A stretch of 64,000 bases of DNA from Alphaproteobacteria bacterium. Its GTDB lineage: Bacteria > Pseudomonadota > Alphaproteobacteria > UBA9219. The notes beneath the pieces are model-generated. The model ran no database searches. It was not told the origin of the DNA and saw only the letters and a program-made list of their open reading frames with translations. The first letter of the stretch is position 1. Each line of letters starts with the position of its first letter. Positions 11,034 through 40,409 of this stretch are shown here, in pieces. The stretch spans positions 65,819 through 129,818 of the forward strand of contig JAFALY010000035.1 in NCBI GenBank assembly GCA_019233975.1, read 5' to 3'. Both the position numbers and the translations under genes were made by a program.

Positions 11034-11130
11034 TCACCGCAGAACAAATTATGGTTGTATCCTGCCTATAAATGCATACTATAGCGTGCAGTCGATGGGG
11101 TCGCGCCCGGTGGCATAGTGGCAGTACAAA

Positions 11131-11613
11131 ATGTCTAACGAATTGATAGATAACGATAATGTGGCGATATTGATTGACGATCATGTCAGCAATCGCATTA
11201 AGCTACGCCGTAACATGCTGGGCATCACGCAGGGTCAGTTGGCCAAATTCTTGGGTCTGACCTTCCAACAGGTACAGAAATACGAAAACGCGTCCAATAG
11301 AATAGGCGCCGGCCGTTTGAAGATGGTGGCTGATTTTCTACAGGTGCCCGTCAGCTGGTTTTATGAAGGATTAGAAGGTGCTGCGCCTGCTTTTGTAGGG
11401 ATTGCCGAAGGCAAACAGGCAGCGTTGGAAGACGCACCTCCTGGGGGCGTGGCCCGTCCTGCGTCACAAAAAGCCTCAGCCTTGGACGTCGATGTGCTGG
11501 CCAAGCCCGAAACCATGGATCTGATCCGCGCTTATTACGCGGTCAAGGATCGCGACCAACGCCGGAAAATAGTCGACCTTATCAAGAGCATGGCGGACAG
11601 CGACGCCGTTTAA
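11131..11613 (+). CDS. XRE-family helix-turn-helix transcriptional regulator
   Basis: HTH_XRE core 'LRRNMLGITQGQLAKFLGLTFQQVQKYENASNRIGAGRL' with a C-terminal acidic region. Confidence 0.7.
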   Translation: MSNELIDNDNVAILIDDHVSNRIKLRRNMLGITQGQLAKFLGLTFQQVQKYENASNRIGAGRLKMVADFLQVPVSWFYEGLEGAAPAFVGIAEGKQAALEDAPPGGVARPASQKASALDVDVLAKPETMDLIRAYYAVKDRDQRRKIVDLIKSMADSDAV

Positions 11614-11733
11614 GAGACATGGCGTTTTCGTGACAAAACAGGCCTTTGGCTTGATCGCTTCGTTAATTCATGCTTTGTTGGCCGTCCCCGCGTGTGCAAC
11701 GCAACCTGCCCCTGCCAAAGACGGAAATAGATT

Positions 11734-12915
11734 ATGATCAGCAAAGTTAAGAAAAACTACCTTTTCACCTCTGAATCAGTTGGCGAAGGGCACCCGGACA
11801 AGGTCTGTGACCGTATTTCGGATTCGATTGTCGATTTGTTCCTGAGCCATGACCCGCAAAGCCGCGTGGCCGTTGAAACGCTGGCGACCACCAACCGTAT
11901 CGTTCTGGCCGGTGAAATTCGCGGGCCGCGCCTGATTACCCCCGCCGAAATGGAAAAGGCCGCGCGCGAAGCGGTACGTGAAATCGGCTATGCCCAAAAG
12001 GGCTTCCACTGGCAATGGGCGGATGTTGAAATTCACGTCCATGCGCAATCCGAAGATATCGCGATTGGTGTCGATGCGTCCGGTAACAAGGACGAAGGTG
12101 CTGGCGACCAGGGTATCATGTTCGGTTATGCCTGCCGCGAAACACCGACTTTTATGCCAGCGCCGATTTTCTATTCGCACAAGATTTTGCGCCTGATCTC
12201 CGAAGCCCGTCATGCTGGCAAGCTGCCGACGCTCGGCCCCGATGCGAAAAGCCAGGTCACGCTTGAATATGTAGACGGCGTGCCGGTCCGTGCGGCGCGC
12301 GTTGTCGTGTCGACCCAGCATGATGAAAAGATCGATCAGGCCGAAGTGCGCGAAATCGTGCGCCCGTTTGTTGTGCAGGCTTTGCCGGAAGGCTGGATGT
12401 GCGAAGACCAGTATTTCTATGTGAACCCGACGGGTCGCTTTGTCATCGGCGGTCCCGATGGCGACGCCGGTCTGACGGGCCGCAAGATTATCGTCGATAC
12501 TTACGGTGGCGCAGCCCCCCATGGCGGCGGTGCGTTTTCGGGCAAGGATCCCACCAAGGTTGACCGTTCGGCCGCTTATATGGCGCGTTATCTGGCCAAA
12601 AACATTGTGGCTGCGGGCATTGCCGACCGTTGCACCCTGCAATTGGCCTATGCCATCGGCGTGTCTGAACCGCTCGCGCTTTACGTTTCGACGCATGACA
12701 CGAACCATGTCGATGATGAAAAACTGCCGACTGTCTTGCGCGATATGGTGCGCCTGTCGCCGCGCGGCATTCGCGAACATCTGCAGCTGAACCGCCCGAT
12801 TTATAAAAAGACGTCTTCGTTCGGGCACTTTGGTCGCGAGCCGGAGGCGGATGGTCATTTCTCGTGGGAACGCCTTGACCTCGTCCCCGAACTGAAGCGC
12901 ACGTTCAATCTCTAA
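11734..12915 (+). CDS. metK: S-adenosylmethionine synthetase
   Basis: '[12 protein letters not shown]', 'GAGDQG' and 'GGGAFSGKD' signatures are present. Confidence 0.95.
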
Positions 12916-12923
12916 GGAAGGGA

Positions 12924-14270
12924 TTGCCGATGTCGCGTAAACTTTTTGGTACCGATGGCATTCGCGGCCTGGCGAACCAGGAGCCGATGACCGCCGAAAC
13001 AGCGTTGGCCGTTGCCATGGCGGCAGGCGGTCAGTTCCGCAGTGGCTCGCATCGTCACCGCGTGGTCATCGGGAAGGATACGCGTCTGTCGGGCTATTTG
13101 CTGGAGCCGGCACTGACAGCGGGCTTTATCGCACAGGGGATGGATGTCATCCTTCTGGGACCGTTGCCCACACCCGCCGTTGCCATGCTGACGCGCAGCC
13201 TGCGCGCGGATCTGGGCGTGATGATCTCTGCCTCGCACAATCCGTATCAGGATAACGGCATCAAACTGTTTGGCCCGAACGGCGGCAAACTTTCGGATGA
13301 TGTCGAAGCGCGTATCGAAGCCGATATGCAAAACGGCACAGGGCAAAACCGCGTGCCGTCCGATGCGTTGGGCCGCGCCAGCCGTCTGGATGACGCGATT
13401 GGCCGTTATGTTGAATATGTCAAAGCGACTTTCCCGGGCAATACGCTTGAAGGGTTGAAGATTGTCGTCGATTGCGCCAACGGTGCGGCATACAAGGTGG
13501 CGCCGACAGTTTTGTGGGAGCTGGGGGCCGAGGTTGTGCCGATTGCGGTCACGCCGGATGGCCGTAACATCAATGACCGTTGTGGCGCCACGCATACGCG
13601 TTTGATGCAGGAAGCGGTTTTGCTGCATCAGGCCGATATCGGTATTGCGCTGGATGGTGATGCCGACCGTTTGATTATCGCCGACGAAAAAGGACAGAAG
13701 GTTGATGGCGACCAGCTGATGGGCCTGATTGCAACGCATATGGCCAAGCGCGGCGCGTTAAAAGGCGGGGCCGTTGTCGCGACCGTTATGTCTAATCTGG
13801 GACTTGAACGCCATTTGCAGGCGCAGGGTTTGCGCCTGATCCGCACACCTGTGGGTGACCGTTATGTGGTCGAAGCGATGCAGGAAAAAGGGTGCAATCT
13901 GGGCGGTGAACAATCCGGCCATATTGTCCTGAGCGATTACAGCACGACAGGCGATGGCTTGATCGCCGCGCTGCAGGTGCTGGCCGTCTTGCGCGAAAGC
14001 GGCAGGAAGGCGAGCGAGCTTTGCGCCGTTTTCAAACCCCTGCCGCAGATCCTCAGCAATGTGCGCGCGCCGGGCGAGATTTTGCAGAAACCCGCCGTAC
14101 AGGCCGCCATTGCCACGGCTGAACAAAGTCTGGGCGACAAAGGGCGTGTGCTGATCCGCAAGTCGGGAACAGAACCGCTTATTCGTGTGATGGCTGAAGG
14201 CGAAGATGCCGACCTCGTTCAACGCGTGGTGGGCGACATCGTCGCCGTTATCACAAAGGAAGCGGCGTAA
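12924..14270 (+). CDS. glmM: phosphoglucosamine mutase
   Basis: 'LFGTDGIRG' and the active-site 'SASHNP' motif are present; the length is 448 aa. Confidence 0.95.
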
Positions 14271-14300
14271 CCCGACCCACCGGTCGCGGCGCAAGACGAA

Positions 14301-15479
14301 ATGGAACTGGGTATGTCCTTGGCTTTGATTATCGCGCTTATCAGTTTTATCGGCTGGGTTTATCTGGCGTTCTTTCATGACGCATTCTGGCAACCGCTGA
14401 CTTTCCCTTTGTCGCCGGAACCCACAACATGGCCCGAGGTTGCGATTATCGTCCCCGCGCGTAATGAGACCGATAGCCTGCCACAAACCCTGCCGTCATG
14501 GCTGGCGCAGGATTACAAAGGTGTCTGGCGCGTCATTCTGGTCGATGACCACAGCACAGACGGCACGGCGGCAACCGCACGCGCTATCGCCAAGCGTCTG
14601 GGTCGCGAAGACAGGTTGGAGGTTATCGCGGCTCCGGACCTGCCGCAGGGCTGGCTGGGTAAGGTGGCTGCGATGCAGGCGGGCGTTGCCGCCAGTCAGT
14701 CGGATTATATCTTGTTCACGGATGCCGATATTCGCCATGCGCCGCACAGCCTGTCGCGTCTGGTTGCGCGTGCTGTTGAAATGAAGCTCGACCTCACCTC
14801 GCAAATGGTGCGGTTGCGTTGCGTCGCGGTTGCTGAAAAATTACTGATCCCGGCTTTTGTTTTTTTCTTTGGCATGCTGTACCCGTTCCGCCGTGCCAAT
14901 GATGCGAACCATGATATGGCCGCCGCCGCAGGCGGGACCATGCTGGTGCGCCGCAAGGCGTTGCAGAATGCAGGCGGCATGGCGGCGTTGCGTAACGCGC
15001 TGATTGATGACTGTACATTGGCGCGGGCGATCAAGTTGGCGGGCGGCGGCGCGGATGAACAGGGTTTGCCGGTCAAGGGGCGTATTGAACTGACATTGGC
15101 CACGGATACGGAATCTCTGCGCCCCTATCCCGATATTGCCGATGTTTGGGACATGGTAGCCCGCACGGCATTTACACAATTGCGTTATTCAACCGCTATG
15201 CTGGCGGGTGCTTTGTGCGGGCTGTCGCTTTTGTTTCTGGTGCCGCCCTTGTTGCCCGTTTTGTCGGATTCTGCGGGTGCTGGGCTGTGGGCCATGGCGG
15301 CTTGGCTTCTGATGGCGCTGATTTATGTGCCTATGGTCATGTTTTATAAACAATCTCCGCTCTGGGCATTGACACTGCCACTGGCGGCGGCGATTTATAT
15401 GGCTGCAACTTTTGACTCGGCTTTGCGCTATTGGCGCGGGCAGGGCGGTTTGTGGAAAGGCCGCGCGCAAGCATCATGA
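14301..15479 (+). CDS. hpnB: hopanoid-associated family 2 glycosyltransferase (HpnB-like)
   Basis: GT2 motifs 'VAIIVPARNE', 'ILVDDHSTDGT' and 'FTDADI', with an N-terminal TM and C-terminal TM segments. Its stop overlaps the hpnC start (ATGA), the same position HpnB occupies in Zymomonas-type hpn clusters. Confidence 0.6.
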   Translation: MELGMSLALIIALISFIGWVYLAFFHDAFWQPLTFPLSPEPTTWPEVAIIVPARNETDSLPQTLPSWLAQDYKGVWRVILVDDHSTDGTAATARAIAKRLGREDRLEVIAAPDLPQGWLGKVAAMQAGVAASQSDYILFTDADIRHAPHSLSRLVARAVEMKLDLTSQMVRLRCVAVAEKLLIPAFVFFFGMLYPFRRANDANHDMAAAAGGTMLVRRKALQNAGGMAALRNALIDDCTLARAIKLAGGGADEQGLPVKGRIELTLATDTESLRPYPDIADVWDMVARTAFTQLRYSTAMLAGALCGLSLLFLVPPLLPVLSDSAGAGLWAMAAWLLMALIYVPMVMFYKQSPLWALTLPLAAAIYMAATFDSALRYWRGQGGLWKGRAQAS

Positions 15480-16342
15480 CCAACAAAGCCATCATTCCCG
15501 CCTCCGAACCCGCGACCGATCAGGCCTTTAACGCGTGGAAAAATCAAAATACAGAAAATTTTCCGGTAGGGTCGTTCCTTATCCGCGCCGCGTTGCGGCC
15601 GCATGTACATGCTTTTTATGCCTTTGCCCGTGCGGCGGATAATATTTCCGATGACCCGCTGATGGACGCGGCCGAGAAAATCCGCCGCCTGAACCAGTTT
15701 GCGCTGACGCTCGGTAACGCCGACTGCACCAAGGTGCCAGAGGCTGCCCTGATGCGCCAAAGTCTGACCGCAACACGGATATCGCCGCGGCATTGCCTTG
15801 ACCTGCTGACGGCCTTTAAGCGCGATGCGACGCAATTGCGCTATCAGAATTGGGATGAGCTGCTGGACTACTGCCGTTATTCGGCGGCGCCTGTCGGACG
15901 TTATGTTCTGGCGTTGCACGGTATTGGCGAGGCGGCTTGGCCTGCGAATGACGCGCTGTGCGCGGCGTTGCAGATCATCAATCATATTCAGGATTGCGCG
16001 GATGATTATCGCGAACTGGACCGCGCCTATATTCCGGAGGATATGCTGTTGATGCGTGGCGCCAATCTGGCCGACCTTTCTGCCGTTAAATGCACGGAAC
16101 CGTTGCGCCTGACATTGCAGGATATGCTCGACCGGCTTAAACCGCTCATGACATTGGCGCACAGCTTCCCGGGACAGATCCGCGATGTGCGTTTAAAACT
16201 GGAAGTTTCGGTGATTGTGGCGTTGGCCGATGACATGATCGCCTGCCTGCGCCGCCGCGATCCGTTGGCTGAGGAAACCAAACTGGGCAAGGGGGCTGTT
16301 ATCTGGGCCGCTTTGCGTGGTGCCGCAGGGGCATGGTTTTAA
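15476..16342 (+). CDS. hpnC: squalene/phytoene-synthase family protein, hydroxysqualene synthase HpnC
   Basis: Squalene/phytoene synthase fold with Asp-rich motifs 'ARAADNISDD' and 'DCADDY'. The HpnC/HpnD assignment is by gene order. The ATG at 15476 overlaps the hpnB stop; the listed ORF begins at 15431. Confidence 0.75.
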   Translation: MTNKAIIPASEPATDQAFNAWKNQNTENFPVGSFLIRAALRPHVHAFYAFARAADNISDDPLMDAAEKIRRLNQFALTLGNADCTKVPEAALMRQSLTATRISPRHCLDLLTAFKRDATQLRYQNWDELLDYCRYSAAPVGRYVLALHGIGEAAWPANDALCAALQIINHIQDCADDYRELDRAYIPEDMLLMRGANLADLSAVKCTEPLRLTLQDMLDRLKPLMTLAHSFPGQIRDVRLKLEVSVIVALADDMIACLRRRDPLAEETKLGKGAVIWAALRGAAGAWF

Positions 16343-32488: not shown

Positions 32489-33121
32489 ATGAATCATATT
32501 CGCACACACCGCACCGCGCGTGGCTGGAGCCTGCAGCAGCTGGCCGATGCCGCGGGCACATCCAAAAGCCAGATCGACAAACTGGAAAAGGGTGAACGTC
32601 GCCTGACGGTCGACTGGATGGTACGGCTGGCGCGTGCGCTTTCTTGTGACCCGCGTGACCTGATGCCCGAGGCTGGCCTTGGCGGCGCTTTGGAACGTTC
32701 GGCCGCCAATGAAGATCGCCCATTTGCCGATTCCCAACATCTGATACCGGTGCGTGGCGCCGCGCGCGGTGGCGACCGGCAGGAAATGTTTTTGGCTGAT
32801 GGTCCCATTGACCATGTGCCGCGTCCTTATTATCTGGCGCATGTGCGCGACGCCTATGCCATTTATGTGGTTGGTACATCCATGGTGCCGATGTACAGGC
32901 CACGCCAGCTTTTATTCGTCAACCCGTATAAGCCGCCCGCGCCCGGTAACGGCGTTGTTATCATCGACCATCGCGGCGCCGTGTTGATTAAGGAATTTGT
33001 GCGCCAGAAACCAACCGGTGTTGTGGTGCGCGAATATCAACCGGCCCTGCGCGACTTTACCGTGGCACAGGATGATGTTGCGACCATGCACGCGGTTGTA
33101 GGTGCGGCAGAGCCGCAATAA
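32489..33121 (+). CDS. LexA/CI-like repressor: N-terminal XRE HTH plus C-terminal S24 peptidase domain
   Basis: HTH 'RGWSLQQLADAAGTSKSQIDKLEKGER', S24 Ser motif 'VVGTSMVP' and a downstream Lys in 'VLIKEF'. Confidence 0.75.
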   Translation: MNHIRTHRTARGWSLQQLADAAGTSKSQIDKLEKGERRLTVDWMVRLARALSCDPRDLMPEAGLGGALERSAANEDRPFADSQHLIPVRGAARGGDRQEMFLADGPIDHVPRPYYLAHVRDAYAIYVVGTSMVPMYRPRQLLFVNPYKPPAPGNGVVIIDHRGAVLIKEFVRQKPTGVVVREYQPALRDFTVAQDDVATMHAVVGAAEPQ

Positions 33122-33137
33122 ACAGACTGAATGGCGG

Positions 33138-34367
33138 TCAGCGTCGCGGCAGCAAACGCGCATCTTGCGGCGTGGGGTCGGCATAAATCGGCCATGCGGC
33201 ATGGTGCATCAGGGCTTCCTGTACCAGATGTTCCAGCAATTCGCTGAATAACATCGGGTTCTCACGCGACGCTTCCCACAGGAAATAACCGAATGAACCC
33301 GGTATGGTGTTCGCTTCATTGAACCAGACCTGACCCGTGGCGCCATTGCACAGGAAATCGAGGCGCGGCGCGCCTGCGCATGCCACGCTGTCAAACACCA
33401 TGGTGGCCCAACGGCGTATATTGGCTTCGGTTTCCGCAGGCAGTTCGGGGTTGATGGTACGCGTCAACGACAACATGCCTTCGCTCGCGCAGCCCGGGGT
33501 TTTGCTGCCGTCGGTTTTTGTGCCGGCTTTGGTGCCGTTGCCGCCGACATATTTGGTTTTGAAGTCCAGTAATGCGTTGGTGCGCTTGGGGCATTCAATG
33601 GCGGATGTGATAACGCGCCCGCCCCGGCGGCACACCGCCACGTTATATTCAACCAGATTATCGACAAAAGGTTCCAGCAAGGCCGTGTCGTCATAACGGA
33701 AAATACTGGCCGTCAGCACGTCCGATACTTCTTCGTATGATTTGACCATCGACACACCGATACTGCTGCCCATATGTGCGGGTTTGATGCAGCAGGGGAA
33801 GCTGACATCCGGCAACAGTTTCCGTAATTCGTCGGGCGTGATGAGCGTTCCCTCTGTCGGGCGGCGAATTTCCCAGAAAGGCAGGACGGGCACGTCCAAT
33901 CCCGCCAGAACGCGCTTGGTCGCCGCCTTGTCCATAAAGGCGGATGACGCCAGCACACGCGCGCCTGTATAGGGGACATGCGCCGTTTCAAACAAACCCT
34001 GCACCGCGCCGTCTTCGCCGATTGCGCCATGGAAGGCCAGAAACGCGACATCGAACGGAATGGTTTTTGTCCTGCCAAAAAAAGAGGTGCGACGCGTGAT
34101 CAGTTGCGGCTGACGCGGGCAGGACAGGTCCAATACAACCTCGGTCAAGGCGCCGCGTGTTACGTTGTCCAGCATATAACTGTTGCGGTGACGCAGCGCT
34201 TCGCCGGTCAACCACGCGCCGTCTGGCGCCACATAAAGCGGGATGGCCTCGAACAGGGTTGGGTCAAAGGCGGACAGGGCCTGCAAACCGGTGATGATGC
34301 TGACATCATGTTCGGGCGAACGCCCGCCAAACATCACCAGAATCTTCTTACGTTGTGTTGCGGACAT
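33138..34367 (-). CDS. D-alanine--D-alanine ligase family ATP-grasp enzyme (atypical, 410 aa)
   Basis: Ddl N-terminal signature 'KILVMFGGRSPEHDVS', 'DKAATKRVLAGLDVPVLPF', 'PCCIKPAHMGSSIGVS' and C-terminal 'RLDFLCNGATGQVWFNEANTIPG'. A ~45-aa Gly/Thr/Lys-rich insertion and a ~60-aa C-terminal extension are not found in canonical Ddl. Confidence 0.7.
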   Translation of the reverse strand: MSATQRKKILVMFGGRSPEHDVSIITGLQALSAFDPTLFEAIPLYVAPDGAWLTGEALRHRNSYMLDNVTRGALTEVVLDLSCPRQPQLITRRTSFFGRTKTIPFDVAFLAFHGAIGEDGAVQGLFETAHVPYTGARVLASSAFMDKAATKRVLAGLDVPVLPFWEIRRPTEGTLITPDELRKLLPDVSFPCCIKPAHMGSSIGVSMVKSYEEVSDVLTASIFRYDDTALLEPFVDNLVEYNVAVCRRGGRVITSAIECPKRTNALLDFKTKYVGGNGTKAGTKTDGSKTPGCASEGMLSLTRTINPELPAETEANIRRWATMVFDSVACAGAPRLDFLCNGATGQVWFNEANTIPGSFGYFLWEASRENPMLFSELLEHLVQEALMHHAAWPIYADPTPQDARLLPRR

Positions 34368-34481: not shown

Positions 34482-35261
34482 ATGCAGGGTTTTGTGAACG
34501 ACGCCCCCCTTTCTTCCATCCATTACCGCCTGTCCGGCGTGGCGTTGGAACAGGCGTCACGCGTGTTTGTCTGGGGCCATGGCTGGGGGCAGAGCGGGCA
34601 GGTTTTCGCCCCTATGGCCGAATCATTGCCACAGGCGGCGCATATACTGCTCGACTTCCCCGGTTTTGGCGCGTCACCCCTGCCGCCCGCCCATTGGGGC
34701 GTTGCCGATTACGCCGATGCCTGTGCCGCACTGCTGGACACCCTGCCGTTGCCGGGCAAAGAGGTCATCTGGGTCGGGCATTCTTTTGGCGGTCGCGTGG
34801 GCGTCAGTTTGGTCGCGCGGTATCCGGGCAAAATTACCAAATTGTGCCTGGTCGCGGCGGCCGGGCTGAAGCGCCGCCGTCCCTGGTACCAGAAACTGCG
34901 GTCCGGGATACAGGTCGCTTTTTTCAAAACCTTGCGTCGTTTGCCATGGCATCTGGCGTGGGTTGAACGCATGAAGTCGCGCATGGGCAGTGCCGATTAC
35001 AGGAATGCGGGCGCCATGCGTCCGGTGTTCGTGCGTGTTGTGAATGAAGATCTGGCCGCCACCGCGCTGCAGATACGCTGCCCGACTTTACTGATTTACG
35101 GCGGGCGGGACACTGAAACGCCGCCCAGTATGGGCGAAGATTATGCCCATCTGATACCGCAGGTGCGCTTTCTGCTGGCCCCGGACGCTGATCATTACTC
35201 CCTTTTGGGCGCGCATCGCGCGATTGTCATGAAATGGATCAAGGAATTTACGGGATGCTGA
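34482..35261 (+). CDS. alpha/beta-fold hydrolase
   Basis: Nucleophile elbow 'GHSFGG' plus 'HGWGQS' and a C-terminal 'DADHYS' (Asp-His). The alternative start is 34425. The stop overlaps the next gene's ATG (ATGCTGA). Confidence 0.7.
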   Translation: MQGFVNDAPLSSIHYRLSGVALEQASRVFVWGHGWGQSGQVFAPMAESLPQAAHILLDFPGFGASPLPPAHWGVADYADACAALLDTLPLPGKEVIWVGHSFGGRVGVSLVARYPGKITKLCLVAAAGLKRRRPWYQKLRSGIQVAFFKTLRRLPWHLAWVERMKSRMGSADYRNAGAMRPVFVRVVNEDLAATALQIRCPTLLIYGGRDTETPPSMGEDYAHLIPQVRFLLAPDADHYSLLGAHRAIVMKWIKEFTGC

Positions 35262-36853
35262 ATTTTGACAACGGCGCTATGGCCATCGTCCTATTATCGG
35301 CGTGCGGGTTTTGCTATCGCCGCCTGCTGCGCTACTTGCATATGTTCCAGCAGGATGATTATAACGAAGTGCGTCTGCTACAATGGTTGTGGCATACGGG
35401 CTCATTCGATCGTCGCATTTCTATAGCCTTGGTATTGATCGCCTTGCTGGCGGTTTGGGTTTTGTCTCCGTCCTATGCCGCCTTGGCCGTTGCGTTACTG
35501 TTCGCTGTTGCCGCGTGGCGCGAACCTGACCCCCGTGTGGCGGGTAAAAAGAAACTGGTCATCACGCAACGTGCGCGCCGCATTCTGGTGATGGCGTGCC
35601 TGTTGCAGTTCCTGCTTATACTCGCAGTCGGCATTAAAATGCAGCCTGTCGCATGGGTCTTGGCTGTGCAGTTTGTGCCCTTGGCCGTTGTGATCGGCAA
35701 TATCCTGCTGCGCCCCGTGGAAGCGCGTATTCAGGCCAAGATTATGCGCGAAGCCGTGCAGCGGTTGCAGCAGGTCGCGCCAAAGATTATCGGCATCACC
35801 GGGTCATTCGGCAAAACATCCGTCAAACACATTCTGGGCCATGTGCTGGAAGTGAACGCGTCCACGCTCTATACGCCGGGCAGCGTCAATACGCTCATGG
35901 GCATTTCGCGCATTATCCGCGAGAAATTGCCGGACCAATGCCGCTTTTTCATTGTGGAGATGGGAGCCTATGGCGTGGGGTCTATTACACGCCTGTGCCG
36001 TTTCACGCCGCCTGATCTGGGCATTATCACGGCGATCGGCGAGGCACATTATGAACGTTTCAAAAGCCTGGATGGCGTGGCGCACGCCAAGTTCGAATTG
36101 GCCGACAGCGTATGGCGTAAGCCAGATGGGCAGATGGTCCTGCATCAGCAAACACTGTCACAACCCTATGCCGCCGGTCAGGTGGCCGCGCATCGTGGGC
36201 AGGCCTGGGTGTGCGGAGCGGGTCCCGATGCGGATGCTGCTGTGCAAGATGTGCAAACAACGCCACAGGGGTTGACGCTGTCCCTTACGTGGTGCGGCAT
36301 GACCTATGCGCTGCAAGTGCCATTGTTCGGCAAACATCACGCGGACAACGTGGCACTGGCATTTGTGGCGGCGGCCACGCTTGGTATCGCGCCTGAGAAA
36401 ATTGTCTATGCGTTGCGTACCGTGCCACAGATCAAGCACCGGCTGGAGGTTAAAAAGCAAGGTGATATGACCCTGATCGACGACGCGTTCAATTCCAACC
36501 CGCGCGGTTTTGCCGAAGCGGTTGATGTGATGGCGTTGCTGGCATCGGCGGGGCAGGGCCGCGCCATTTTGGTGACGCCGGGTTTGGTGGAGTTGGGCGA
36601 GCGGCACGATCAGGTGCATCATGATCTGGGGGTCCATGCAGCGCAGAAAAGTGATGTCGTATTGGCGATTGCTCCCGATCGTATCCCCGATTTCATTACC
36701 GCCATCCAGCAAACCGCGCCGGGTAAAACGCTTTTACTGATGCCGACCATGGCGGCGGCATTGGCATGGGTGCGCGATAATGCGCGTGCAAGCGACGTTG
36801 TGCTGCTTGAAAACGATTTGCCGGATTTGTACGAAGCGCGCCTCAGCCTCTAA
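35255..36853 (+). CDS. Mur-ligase family protein (MurF-like) with an N-terminal polytopic membrane domain
   Basis: Residues ~1-170 hold 4-5 hydrophobic helices. These are followed by 'IIGITGSFGKTSVK' (Mur-ligase P-loop), 'DDAFNSNP' (MurF DDSYNANP-like) and 'IKHRLE'. Confidence 0.7.
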   Translation: MLNFDNGAMAIVLLSACGFCYRRLLRYLHMFQQDDYNEVRLLQWLWHTGSFDRRISIALVLIALLAVWVLSPSYAALAVALLFAVAAWREPDPRVAGKKKLVITQRARRILVMACLLQFLLILAVGIKMQPVAWVLAVQFVPLAVVIGNILLRPVEARIQAKIMREAVQRLQQVAPKIIGITGSFGKTSVKHILGHVLEVNASTLYTPGSVNTLMGISRIIREKLPDQCRFFIVEMGAYGVGSITRLCRFTPPDLGIITAIGEAHYERFKSLDGVAHAKFELADSVWRKPDGQMVLHQQTLSQPYAAGQVAAHRGQAWVCGAGPDADAAVQDVQTTPQGLTLSLTWCGMTYALQVPLFGKHHADNVALAFVAAATLGIAPEKIVYALRTVPQIKHRLEVKKQGDMTLIDDAFNSNPRGFAEAVDVMALLASAGQGRAILVTPGLVELGERHDQVHHDLGVHAAQKSDVVLAIAPDRIPDFITAIQQTAPGKTLLLMPTMAAALAWVRDNARASDVVLLENDLPDLYEARLSL

Positions 36854-36864
36854 GGCAAACGGCC

Positions 36865-37974
36865 TTAAGCGTGCGCGTTGATCAGGTCGCCCAGTTTGTC
36901 GACCAGAAACGCCATGTCGTCCTGACCCATATCCTGATACTGCGTCAAAATACGTTCAATGACGCGCGCGCGGTAAATGTCGCGGCCATTGGCTTCATCG
37001 ACCATCAGCGTTTCGCTGATCACGTCAACGGCAGTGCGGAAGGCAGGCAGCAGGCGTGGCGGCAGGCTGGTTTTGGCGTAAAGCGACTTCAGGCCCAAAC
37101 GCCCTGCATCATGGATCAGGATGCGTGCGTTGACGATCGGCACATTGGCCAAAACCGCCATGGATACTTCGAAAAACAGCAGGTCGCCCATGCAAACCGA
37201 ACGCAGCACCAATGACGGCGTCAGGCGCTTGTTCTGATGCATCTGGGTCAGCATGCGTTCCAGGTCTTTTTCATTCGAATTGCCGGACAATGTCATCACG
37301 GCGCGTTCGCGCGATTGCAGCACAAGATTGGCCGCGATATTCGGCGACATTTCATGGTGCACCATCAGATAATCCTGCAGATTATCCGATACCAAAGTAA
37401 CCAGACGTTCGGCCACGACAGCGGGCAGGGTATCGCGCTTCACCATCTTTTCCTTGACCAGATTGCTTTCGGAAAAGCGGTCAACCGCCTTGTTCATGCT
37501 GGGCGTGTTGATGACGGCGCCGTTGTTTTCCATCAAACGGGCAACCGTCTTTTCGCTGCCTTTATCGATCAGCGCCTCGGAAACTTTTTCAGACACAATC
37601 GCGCGCGATGCAATCGCTGCGTGTTTGGCCTCGTCGCCTTTGTGGACAATGGCGGTCAGGTCTTCGTCGGTTAAAATGCTGGAATAAGTCAAAATGGGTG
37701 AGGCAACGCTTTCGACGTCGTTCGCCAGCTTGACGGCAACGTCGTGCGGCATGCGTGCGGCGCTGCGCAGGCTTTCGGCCAGGGCCTGACGCACGGAAAC
37801 TTCGACGTCACGCGCCATGATGCGCACGATATCCTCGGCCAATCCAAGCTCGGTTGACGTCATGCGCGGGTTGTCGATTTCAAGGGCCAGCTTACTGGCA
37901 AGCTCAGCACGCACTTTCGGCAATGGCTCAGCGAGCAGTTTGGCGACGTCGGATTGTGACAGGCTTGATGCCAT
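36865..37974 (-). CDS. DUF2336-like alphaproteobacterial conserved protein
   Basis: 369-aa all-helical repeat-like protein. The family assignment is from memory of size and composition only. Confidence 0.4.
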   Translation of the reverse strand: MASSLSQSDVAKLLAEPLPKVRAELASKLALEIDNPRMTSTELGLAEDIVRIMARDVEVSVRQALAESLRSAARMPHDVAVKLANDVESVASPILTYSSILTDEDLTAIVHKGDEAKHAAIASRAIVSEKVSEALIDKGSEKTVARLMENNGAVINTPSMNKAVDRFSESNLVKEKMVKRDTLPAVVAERLVTLVSDNLQDYLMVHHEMSPNIAANLVLQSRERAVMTLSGNSNEKDLERMLTQMHQNKRLTPSLVLRSVCMGDLLFFEVSMAVLANVPIVNARILIHDAGRLGLKSLYAKTSLPPRLLPAFRTAVDVISETLMVDEANGRDIYRARVIERILTQYQDMGQDDMAFLVDKLGDLINAHA

Positions 37975-38790: not shown

Positions 38791-40230
38791 TCAATAACTG
38801 CCCGGGCTCAATACTAAACAGGCCTGACCCTTGCTGGTCAGGTCGGTGCAGACCGTTTGCGCGGTCTGCGCATCAAGGTCCAGAATACGCGCGCGGTAAA
38901 TGGTGGCCTTGCCGTTACTCATTTTCTGCAATTCCGGACGGGCTGTTCCCAACAATTGAGGCATACCGTTGATGGTGTTGGCCAGAGATTGCCGTCCGAC
39001 ATCGACATCACTATAGGCGCCAATCTGTATCGCATAACGCGTGCTGTCCGCCGGGGGAGCCGCACTTACGGCCATGCTGCCGCCATGCGTGGCGGGGGCC
39101 GTAGCGCCGACAATTACCGGAGTGGGTGCAGCAGTATTATCATTGGCGGCCTGTACGGTTGCCACTGCGGGCGTCGGGGTTGGTTTGACGGGCGGTCTTG
39201 CTGTCACAAAAACGGCATCCGCGCGCGGCGGCAGGCGGATCGCGCTGCCGACTTTAATGGTCGATTCTTCCTCTTCGCTGTCATTGTTATCGCCCTGTGC
39301 TTCATCCTGACGCACGGCCATAACGCGACCTGTGCGTTGTTCTTCATGCGCGCGCTCAAAGGCGTCATCCAGCAACTGCGCCATGTGGTTATCACGCGCG
39401 ATGGCGGACTTGCCGCCGAACACAACGCCGATCAGGCGGAGATTGCCGCGCTTGGCGGACGCAACCAGATTGAACCCCGAGGCGCGGATATAACCGGTCT
39501 TGATGCCATCCATGCCGTCATAACGTTCTTTCAAATGGTTGTGGTTGTGATGCGCAATACCGGCATAGGTAAAACTGTCGTGATCGAAATAGGGGTAGTA
39601 GTGCGGGAAATGATAAACCAACGCATGTCCTAACAATGCCATATCGTGTGCCGTCGTTACCTGACCCGGGTCCGGCAGGCCTGACGGATTATTGAAATGT
39701 GTGTGCATCATGCCCAGCGCGTGCGCTTGTCGCGTCATCATCGCGCCAAAACCTTCTTCACTGCCCCCCATCCATTCGGCCAGAACAACGGCGGCATCAT
39801 TCGCGGATTCCGTGACCAGACCTAAAATGGCGTCTTCGACGCGGATGCGCTGCCCGGGGCGCAGGCCCAATTTAGAGGGGGCCTGTTCGGCAGCGTTTTC
39901 CGATACGGGCAAATATTGGTTCAACCCCAGCCGCCCGGCATCCAGCGCCTGAAAGGTGATGTACAGCGTCATCATTTTTGTCAGCGAAGCCGGATGGCGG
40001 ATGCTGTCGGCGGCTGTGGCGTGCAGGACCTCACCCGTTTCCGCATTAATCACCAAGTCGGCATAGCTGGCGCCATGGTCGACCAGAGCATGCGCGTGCT
40101 TGACCTTTTTGTGCCCTTTGTGATGCTTTTTGGGGGCCGCCCAAGCATGGCCTGAAGACAAGCATAGGGCTAACATTATGATAAATAAAAGGGATTTTTT
40201 TATAAGAGAACTGTTTCGCATAGCATCCAT
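38791..40230 (-). CDS. D-alanyl-D-alanine carboxypeptidase (S11, PBP5/6-like) with a C-terminal SPOR domain
   Basis: SxxK 'SLTKMM', 'SGFN' (SxN) and 'KTGY' (KTG). The C-terminal 'YAIQIGAYSDVDVGRQSL...ATIYRARI' is SPOR-like. Signal peptide present; the exact start (40221/40230/40284) is uncertain. Confidence 0.8.
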   Translation of the reverse strand: MDAMRNSSLIKKSLLFIIMLALCLSSGHAWAAPKKHHKGHKKVKHAHALVDHGASYADLVINAETGEVLHATAADSIRHPASLTKMMTLYITFQALDAGRLGLNQYLPVSENAAEQAPSKLGLRPGQRIRVEDAILGLVTESANDAAVVLAEWMGGSEEGFGAMMTRQAHALGMMHTHFNNPSGLPDPGQVTTAHDMALLGHALVYHFPHYYPYFDHDSFTYAGIAHHNHNHLKERYDGMDGIKTGYIRASGFNLVASAKRGNLRLIGVVFGGKSAIARDNHMAQLLDDAFERAHEEQRTGRVMAVRQDEAQGDNNDSEEEESTIKVGSAIRLPPRADAVFVTARPPVKPTPTPAVATVQAANDNTAAPTPVIVGATAPATHGGSMAVSAAPPADSTRYAIQIGAYSDVDVGRQSLANTINGMPQLLGTARPELQKMSNGKATIYRARILDLDAQTAQTVCTDLTSKGQACLVLSPGSY

Positions 40231-40409
40231 AGCGGGTTTGATTCGCCGTTCGTCCAGATTCGGCTTAATGAATCCAGAAATCAAGGACGCGGTTACGCAC
40301 TTGACAGTATATTCTCAATATCGTTAAAATTGTGCAATGCAATATGATCGTGGAAGCGATGTTGCAAGGGCCGAAAAAAGCCCGACCCTCGAACCAGTAC
40401 AGGTTATCG

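Follow-up and report, generated by a model that had tools for sequence, protein, structure and literature searches.

A candidate membrane-integral isozyme of the peptidoglycan ligase MurF, associated with a serine hydrolase and a long-form D-Ala-D-Ala ligase in Alphaproteobacteria

Analysing a 64,000-nucleotide stretch of an Alphaproteobacteria genome of the UBA9219 lineage (assembly GCA_019233975.1, contig JAFALY010000035.1, positions 65,819 to 129,818 of the forward strand; hereafter the window), we identified a gene (35255..36853, + strand) whose product carries a polytopic membrane domain at the N-terminus of a Mur-ligase catalytic core. We propose, with a probability of roughly three in four, that this protein, hereafter transmembrane (TM) MurF or TM-MurF, is a membrane-integral MurF isozyme devoted to peptidoglycan precursor synthesis. 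The proposal builds on the architecture, topology and conservation of the protein, on its linkage with two other genes encoding a serine hydrolase and a long-form D-Ala-D-Ala ligase (Ddl), and on the pattern in which it replaces canonical MurF across genomes.

MurF is regarded as a universal, soluble and essential enzyme, and as an antibiotic target. If our reading is correct, there is a second form, so far undescribed, of the step that closes the cytoplasmic phase of peptidoglycan precursor synthesis, and this form appears to be the sole MurF in most of its carriers.

Results and discussion

A MurF-type catalytic core without domain 1

Residues are numbered here from the start of the longest open reading frame (ORF) of the TM-MurF gene (35234..36853, 539 amino acids), in which the ATG at 35255 is M8 and yields a protein of 532 amino acids. 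The catalytic part of this protein, encoded like all of its features on the + strand, comprises a Mur_ligase_M domain (Pfam PF08245, E 8e-30) at residues 188-380 (35795..36373), with the P-loop GITGSFGKTS at residues 187-196 (35792-35821), followed by a Mur_ligase_C domain (PF02875, E 1e-10) at residues 402-525 (36437..36808), which includes the motif DDAFNSNP at residues 416-423 (36479-36502). In an alignment of 118 sequences, T189, G190, S191, G193 and K194 of the P-loop and D417, N420 and N422 of the second motif are invariant, D416 and P423 being conserved in at least 90% of the sequences. The latter motif corresponds to DDxYNxNP, which we take to be the signature of MurF-type C-terminal domains.

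TM-MurF matches 21 NCBIfam families at E<=0.01, the best of them being the murF family TIGR01143 (E 3e-59, residues 174-525 against profile positions 65-403); the remaining Mur families score far below it, and the PgsB family is absent from these matches. Structural comparisons converge on the same enzyme: the top Foldseek structures are all MurF proteins (4qf5 at E 8e-22, then 4qdi, 4ziy, 4cvm, 3zl8 and 1gg4), and a profile of the TM-MurF family matches E. coli MurF 1GG4 at E 6e-42, with an alignment that begins only at 1GG4 residue 95. Within its own genome, TM-MurF is 29% identical over residues 178-469 to a canonical MurF that covers positions 1-418 of TIGR01143. The membrane form scores between 190 and 238 bits on this profile across the 25 carrier genomes described below. 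By its sequence, the core is thus of MurF type and not of CapB/PgsB type, as the earlier note on this DNA, made from the sequence alone, had already argued from the DDAFNSNP motif. The protein remains MurF-like without being an ordinary member of the family, as it lacks domain 1 and falls under the curated score. As domain 1 is missing, the acceptor cannot be held as it is in MurF.

A conserved five-helix membrane domain

Residues 14-159 (35273..35710) form a five-helix membrane domain, delineated from hydropathy, from the positive-inside pattern and from the helices of an AlphaFold2 (AF2) model, with TM1 at residues 14-28, TM2 at 62-77, TM3 at 81-95, TM4 at 117-134 and TM5 at 139-159. Kyte-Doolittle averages over 19 residues reach maxima of 2.40 (residues 58-95), 2.51 (113-146) and 2.19 (136-162), the first segment (14-28) being shorter. 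Counted from M8, 46 averages of at least 1.6 lie within the first 168 residues and a single one in the remainder of the protein, compared with four (maximum 1.84) in the canonical MurF of the same genome. The AF2 model of the whole protein, built from the 118-sequence alignment, reached a mean predicted local distance difference test score (pLDDT) of 94.8 and a predicted template modelling score (pTM) of 0.91, and places helices at residues 3-40, 45-55, 60-75, 79-96, 112-135, 140-158 and 160-181, over the hydrophobic stretches. The last of these is a linker helix (residues 160-181, 35711..35776) that joins TM5 to the ligase core and matches the helix preceding the P-loop strand in MurF. The presence in one protein of a polytopic membrane domain and a Mur-ligase core, which the earlier note had described while suggesting an AlphaFold model as a check, is therefore borne out by the hydropathy profile, by the model and by conservation over the full length; the sequence strings that it quoted, DDAFNSNP included, are all found in the protein.

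An alignment of 62 N-terminal domains gives a mean hydropathy of 1.9-2.2 for the five segments and counts, on average, 6.7 (loop 1) and 8.1 (loop 3) lysine and arginine residues in the long loops, versus about 0.1 in the short turns. Because positive charges are concentrated in these two loops, the predicted topology is clear, with an external N-terminus and with the two loops on the cytoplasmic side, as is the ligase. The first of them, loop 1 (residues 29-61, 35318..35416), carries the motif RRLLRYLHxFQQ(D/E)(D/E)Y ... FDxR, in which R30, Q40, Y43 and D59 are invariant among the 118 sequences and Y34, L35, H36, Q39, R47, F48 and W51 are at least 90% conserved. Cytoplasmic loop 3 (residues 96-116, 35519..35581) carries the motif ExDPRKxAKKKLVxTxRAxRI, with K105, K106, T111 and R113 invariant and E97, D99, P100, L108 and A114 at least 90% conserved in the same alignment; R116 and I117 reach 90% in alignments of 21 and 62 sequences and not in that of 118. 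W141, Q146, P149 and N156 of TM5 are conserved as well. These invariant polar loop residues and conserved TM5 positions point to a membrane domain that does more than anchor the ligase.

This architecture is maintained over the whole protein: among the best 120 database relatives, 117 measure 519-554 amino acids and are 48-72% identical to the query, 94-99% of which they cover. A search of 1.84 billion proteins with a profile of the membrane domain yielded 1225 cluster representatives at E<=1e-3. In the best 150 of these 1225 matches, 91 proteins are 492-634 amino acids long, of which 85 have the P-loop motif; the remaining 59 are fragment-like, and no architecture other than the membrane domain joined to a Mur-ligase core was seen. 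No Pfam family matches the membrane domain, either in residues 1-187 of TM-MurF or in the domains of its relatives. Folded alone, it reaches a pLDDT of 95.5, and searches of solved folds with this model gave a best VIA Z score of 5.6 and no Foldseek match at E<=1e-3; the modelled domain hence appears to resemble no recognised fold, which does not by itself prove a new one. A protein atlas query with residues 1-175 returned scores of at most 0.88 and no lead.

A kinship in sequence with UbiA prenyltransferases was considered and dropped. It came from 10 of 61 domains that match the C-terminal half of PF01040 at 13-21 bits (cut-off 34.2); hhalign against 22 UbiA-family sequences gave a probability of 0.6% (E 0.099), and no UbiA-family structure stands among the best 50 VIA matches. 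The only segment aligned to the second Asp-rich region of UbiA was the loop 3 stretch ExDPRKxAKKKLVxTxRA (35519-35581), at the same non-significant E-value.

The start codon at 35255

The ATG at 35255 (M8) is the likely start of TM-MurF. An AAGGA box lies 9-13 nucleotides 5' of it, it overlaps the stop codon of the upstream hydrolase gene (ATGCTGA), and it gives the same spacing as in homologues, where about 17-22 residues precede the RR motif. These three features agree with the start taken by the earlier note. The protein-database gene call begins at M16.

A serine hydrolase and a long Ddl complete a conserved trio

Gene linkage was established from 80 related loci in species-representative genomes, mostly metagenome-assembled genomes of Alphaproteobacteria and also members of Labrys and Blastochloris (Blastochloris sulfoviridis); these loci were found with an alignment query of genome contigs, a single-protein query having returned none. 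Directly upstream of TM-MurF and on the same strand, an alpha/beta-fold serine hydrolase (34482..35261, +; Pfam Abhydrolase_1/6) occurs at 79 of the 80 loci, the exception being a contig end. In the window its ORF extends from 34425, with M20 at 34482 as its likely start. No change is seen in 53 homologues at the putative catalytic residues Ser120 (within GHSFGG), Asp229 and His257 or in the HGWG oxyanion motif, and the nearest solved relatives are esterases, a polyhydroxybutyrate (PHB) depolymerase and BioH, which offer little guide to the substrate. The junction between the two genes is a 4-nucleotide overlap in 35 of the 79 pairs, and we consider the hydrolase and TM-MurF to be translationally coupled on this arrangement.

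The third member is a putative long-form D-Ala-D-Ala ligase with the N and C domains of Ddl in Pfam (33138..34367, -), transcribed divergently from the hydrolase-TM-MurF pair; its ORF reaches 34472, with a likely start at M36 (34367). It matches Ddl families at E 1e-64 and remains below their cut-offs (217.9 vs 262 bits, and 208.9 vs 245.65 on TIGR01205). The long type is distinguished by an insert of about 25 residues (about residues 300-345) located after the conserved LDFxxKY and ending in a nearly invariant GMLSLTR, which is conserved in 67 sequences. A Ddl of 400-450 amino acids lies near the pair at 68 of the 80 loci, usually in divergent orientation. Furthermore, at 27 of the 80 loci the hydrolase-ligase pair is embedded in the division and cell wall (dcw) cluster, in opposite orientation, between murB and ddl-ftsQ; the neighbours at one such locus (L009) are MurG, MurC, MurB, FtsQ, FtsA and FtsZ. 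Over all 80 loci, conservation of the neighbourhood is confined to the hydrolase, Ddl and dcw genes and extends to no CapC/CapA-like or lipid-synthesis gene. TM-MurF, the serine hydrolase and the long Ddl form a fixed trio, a partnership that had escaped the earlier note.

Candidates for a hydrolase-ligase fusion were inspected, and none of them proved to be one. The 816-amino-acid frame of genome G183 is an out-of-frame overlap, three other proteins (P0246, P0146 and P0218) contain Mur-ligase M and C domains only, and P0133 and P0167 have no Pfam family. A protein of 639 amino acids in genome G020 (L116, G020:C4, 1521-3440, -) differs by insertions only: the membrane domain of this TM-MurF variant has an extra stretch, and its C-terminal domain is interrupted by a charged insert of about 60 residues.

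Apparent replacement of canonical MurF and Ddl across genomes

The distribution of both forms was examined in a class-wide sample of 401 genomes, a phylum-wide sample of 401 genomes and 31 relatives of the window's genome. Within the class, 25 of the 401 genomes carry the membrane domain, most of these carriers measuring 1.2-2.7 Mb. Two of the 25 (the window's genome, G000, and G151) also have a MurF that passes the TIGR01143 cut-off; a third, G294, has a full-length MurF match of 225 bits, below the cut-off, and three others (G038, G343 and G055) have a MurF-like N-terminal half, for which a fusion with MurE was checked in G038 and G055. In the remaining 19, TM-MurF is the sole MurF-like match at E<=1e-20, and MurC, MurD and MurE are kept. 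None of the 25 carriers has a Ddl over the TIGR01205 cut-off, and in 23 of them the best Ddl match is a frame of 399-459 amino acids, that is, of the long type.

The same mosaic is found at closer range. Among the 31 relatives, seven are carriers, of which three have a canonical MurF over the cut-off, one has a match below the cut-off and three have none. The long Ddl is present in all seven carriers versus none of the 24 non-carriers, 15 of which have a canonical Ddl over the cut-off. Phylum-wide, the domain is rare (3 of 401 genomes, with one match outside the class). A protein atlas gives a lead to a Bacteroidota cluster.

Some of these genomes also hold unusual gene structures. In G038 (L122, G038:C9, 1019-3950), the N-terminal half of a canonical MurF is joined to MurE, the C-terminal part being weak and in another frame; in G055 (L123, G055:C246, 5654-8065), a similar fusion lacks the C-terminal part and is directly followed by mraY. 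These fused halves cover profile positions 1-227 or 3-261 and may be either a decaying murF or a retained piece made of domains 1 and 2. In seven relatives free of the module (G784, G788, G795, G405, G796, G407 and G790), the Ddl match falls in frames of about 800-935 amino acids, which suggests either read-through or the fusion of Ddl with an adjacent dcw gene.

An intermediate state in the window's genome

The genome from which the window derives (1.88 Mb, 100% complete) keeps a dcw cluster with MurE, MurF, MurD and MurC on another contig. The gene order there is murC-murB-ftsQ-ftsA, with no ddl between murB and ftsQ (L091, G000:C9:36000-55000, 11082-15694), and the only Ddl of this complete genome is that of the trio (window 33138-34367). 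Because it is the sole one, the trio Ddl must also feed the canonical MurF, and because this MurF depends on it, the trio Ddl most likely makes D-Ala-D-Ala. We consider that this genome represents an intermediate state, in which the replacement has reached Ddl while the two MurF forms still coexist, and that the replacement is complete in most other carriers.

Proposed mechanism and points that weigh against it

From the features above we infer what reaction the enzyme catalyses, what its loops do and on which carrier its acceptor is borne. In the proposed mechanism, TM-MurF would add D-Ala-D-Ala to the stem peptide of N-acetylmuramic acid (MurNAc)-L-Ala-D-Glu-meso-diaminopimelate. Its MurF-type ATP-binding central domain and dipeptide-binding C-terminal domain would work in the cytoplasm, at the inner face of the membrane, and the five-helix domain stands in the place of the domain 1 that holds uridine diphosphate (UDP) in MurF. 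Situated at the position of that missing domain, the two conserved basic loops may recognise, in its stead, the diphosphate-linked carrier to which the acceptor is attached, the divergently transcribed long Ddl would supply the dipeptide, and the ligase would act together with the coupled serine hydrolase. As to the acceptor, we lean slightly towards UDP-MurNAc-tripeptide, taken at the membrane face next to MraY, over a lipid-linked one, because the membrane form and canonical MurF interchange simply among close relatives.

Several observations weigh against a membrane-integral MurF isozyme. The score of TM-MurF on TIGR01143 (200.9 bits) is well under the cut-off of 288.6, and domain 1 is absent, the match starting at profile position 65. 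Some canonical MurF sequence is kept by 6 of the 25 carriers. The absences on which the replacement pattern is built are those of hidden Markov model (HMM) thresholds applied to draft genomes, some of them 64-87% complete, and related genomes are not independent samples. The window's own genome keeps an intact canonical MurF (573 bits vs a cut-off of 544), so that it can do without TM-MurF for the MurF step, and TM-MurF could serve a specialised purpose there. Finally, the canonical MurF reaction leaves no role for the near-invariable, triad-intact hydrolase, which makes the model incomplete.

Alternative explanations

The most serious alternative refines our proposal more than it opposes it: TM-MurF, aided by the hydrolase, may add D-Ala-D-Ala to undecaprenyl-diphosphate-MurNAc-tripeptide (lipid I/II) at the inner leaflet, once MraY has moved phospho-MurNAc-tripeptide onto undecaprenyl phosphate, so that the stem peptide would be finished on its lipid carrier. 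We hold this as a tentative possibility. An integral membrane domain in the place of the lost UDP-holding domain speaks for it, as do the conserved intramembrane Pro, Asn, Gln and Trp and the KKK/R-rich loop that could bind a diphosphate; tethering alone would need a single helix, and the pTM of 0.91 suggests, from the model, a ligase packed rigidly on the membrane domain. MurT, which lacks domain 1 and acts on lipid II with a hydrolytic partner, provides a precedent, and to our knowledge none of the Mur enzymes without domain 1 (FolC, CapB/PgsB, MurT and the M domain of cyanophycin synthetase) uses a UDP-linked acceptor. However, MurG, MurT/GatD and FemX act on lipid I/II at the cytoplasmic face and are not known as integral membrane proteins, so that reaching this substrate does not call for such a domain. 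A swap for MurF beside standard MurE and MraY is simpler with UDP-MurNAc-tripeptide, the mosaic of both-form and one-form close relatives fits a plain equivalence of the two enzymes, the lead to UbiA, a polyprenyl-diphosphate enzyme, was unconfirmed, and the hydrolase is likewise left without a role. That role would be provided if the trio were a repair, recycling or editing module beside the main pathway, the hydrolase trimming an abnormal stem end at the membrane and TM-MurF rebuilding D-Ala-D-Ala, at least in genomes that keep a canonical MurF, such as that of the window. The invariant triad and the frequent gene overlap agree with this, as does the coexistence of canonical MurF in G000, G151, G791 and G411; it is nonetheless unlikely, as most carriers have no other MurF and the trio must carry the main flux there, the hydrolase is nearest to esterases, depolymerases and BioH-type enzymes and not to known muropeptide peptidases, and no Mpl-type recycling ligase stands among the six Mur-ligase matches of the window's genome.

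A ligase working outside peptidoglycan synthesis, on a carboxylate embedded in the membrane (a lipid head group or a surface polymer, for instance) in the manner of CapB/PgsB, was the reading implied by the earlier note, which held that the substrate or product is membrane-embedded. It could account for the polytopic domain, the loss of MurF domain 1, the score under the family cut-off and the separate intact MurF of the window's genome. We nevertheless find it improbable. A membrane-embedded substrate is possible in the lipid-linked form described above, but we do not retain the claim as it was worded: the gene is tied instead to ordinary peptidoglycan precursor synthesis, by a partner that is the only Ddl in all carriers examined, by the position of the pair inside the dcw cluster at a third of the loci (27 of 80) and by its standing as sole MurF, beside MurC, MurD and MurE, in 19 of 25 carriers, in keeping with the lack of CapC/CapA-like or lipid-synthesis genes among its conserved neighbours and of PgsB among its family matches. 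An annotation artefact, in which the hydrophobic N-terminus would be untranslated and a soluble truncated Mur ligase would start near residue 171, is the least credible of all. An in-frame ATG does exist at residue 171, and the earlier note had named an internal start around residue 170 as a finding that would undermine the fusion. Met171 is not conserved, being Phe in many relatives, which leaves no conserved internal start; the protein upstream of it shows a mean identity of 41% among aligned relatives, its 170 residues being conserved, with invariant positions, in 62-118 relatives. The region also folds with high confidence, and the ATG at 35255 has its own AAGGA box and stop-codon overlap.

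Comparison with known systems

The proposed isozyme is closest to MurF itself (EC 6.3.2.10; TIGR01143; PDB 1GG4, 4QF5, 4CVK and 3ZL8), with which it shares the P-loop central domain, the DDxxNxNP C-terminal domain, the best sequence and structure matches and the linkage to Ddl and dcw genes, and for which it appears to stand in where MurF is lacking. It differs from MurF in having no UDP-binding domain 1 and, instead, a five-helix domain of no known family, as well as in its low family score, its obligate serine hydrolase and its distinct long Ddl with an insert. For the lipid-linked version, the nearest precedent is the lipid II isoglutaminyl synthase MurT/GatD, in which MurT has no UDP-binding domain and acts with a hydrolytic partner on a membrane-linked precursor. 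Unlike TM-MurF, MurT is not known to be integral to the membrane; it works with a glutaminase instead of an alpha/beta hydrolase, and the reaction is an amidation and not a dipeptide addition. TM-MurF scores 19.3 bits on NF052464, whose cut-off is 800. CapB/PgsB is a membrane-working enzyme of the Mur-ligase family, with a single N-terminal hydrophobic anchor and CapC/CapA as partners, whereas TM-MurF has a five-helix domain, a hydrolase and a Ddl as partners and a C-terminal motif of MurF type. Cyanophycin synthetase was also considered and rejected (18 bits on TIGR02068 against a cut-off of 850, with an ATP-grasp partner that matches Ddl families).

A parallel of another kind is VanT, a membrane-bound serine racemase whose N-terminal polytopic membrane domain is described for L-serine uptake in the accessible part of the source (PMC13726279). 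As far as that description goes, VanT resembles TM-MurF as a normally cytoplasmic enzyme of the D-Ala-D-Ala branch bearing a polytopic N-terminal membrane domain; it differs as an unrelated racemase dependent on pyridoxal phosphate. A 2023 survey of Mur enzymes and gene arrangements treats MurF, in its accessible sections, as cytoplasmic (PMC10214165). More generally, a membrane-bound MurF is not described in the accessible portions of the literature that we found (including PMC2922099, PMC13726279 and PMC10214165), one of the queries being dominated by muscle MuRF and partly ranked.

If the lipid-linked reading were true, the MurF step would follow that of MraY, contrary to the textbook order, in the many bacteria in which the membrane form is the only one. 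Whichever the carrier, the trio raises testable questions about the completion of the stem peptide on a lipid carrier and about the contribution of a hydrolase to a ligase step. Genomes with both forms, such as that of the window, and the culturable carriers Labrys and Blastochloris sulfoviridis offer a way in.

Surroundings of the trio in the window

A promoter and terminator scan at the locus gave signals no higher than in shuffled sequence. Beyond the Ddl gene and convergent with it lies a gene (32489-33121, +) for a repressor with a helix-turn-helix and an S24-peptidase domain, of LexA or phage-repressor type. Some 2 kb downstream of the trio, the window encodes an S11 D-alanyl-D-alanine carboxypeptidase (38791-40284, -; PF00768, E 2e-57), which has a long C-terminal extension rich in Ala and Pro and is not among the conserved neighbours elsewhere. 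Between the two, a gene for an SpbR-family/DUF2336 protein (36865-37974, -; 437.7 bits vs a cut-off of 400) is convergent with the TM-MurF gene, their stop codons being 11 nucleotides apart.

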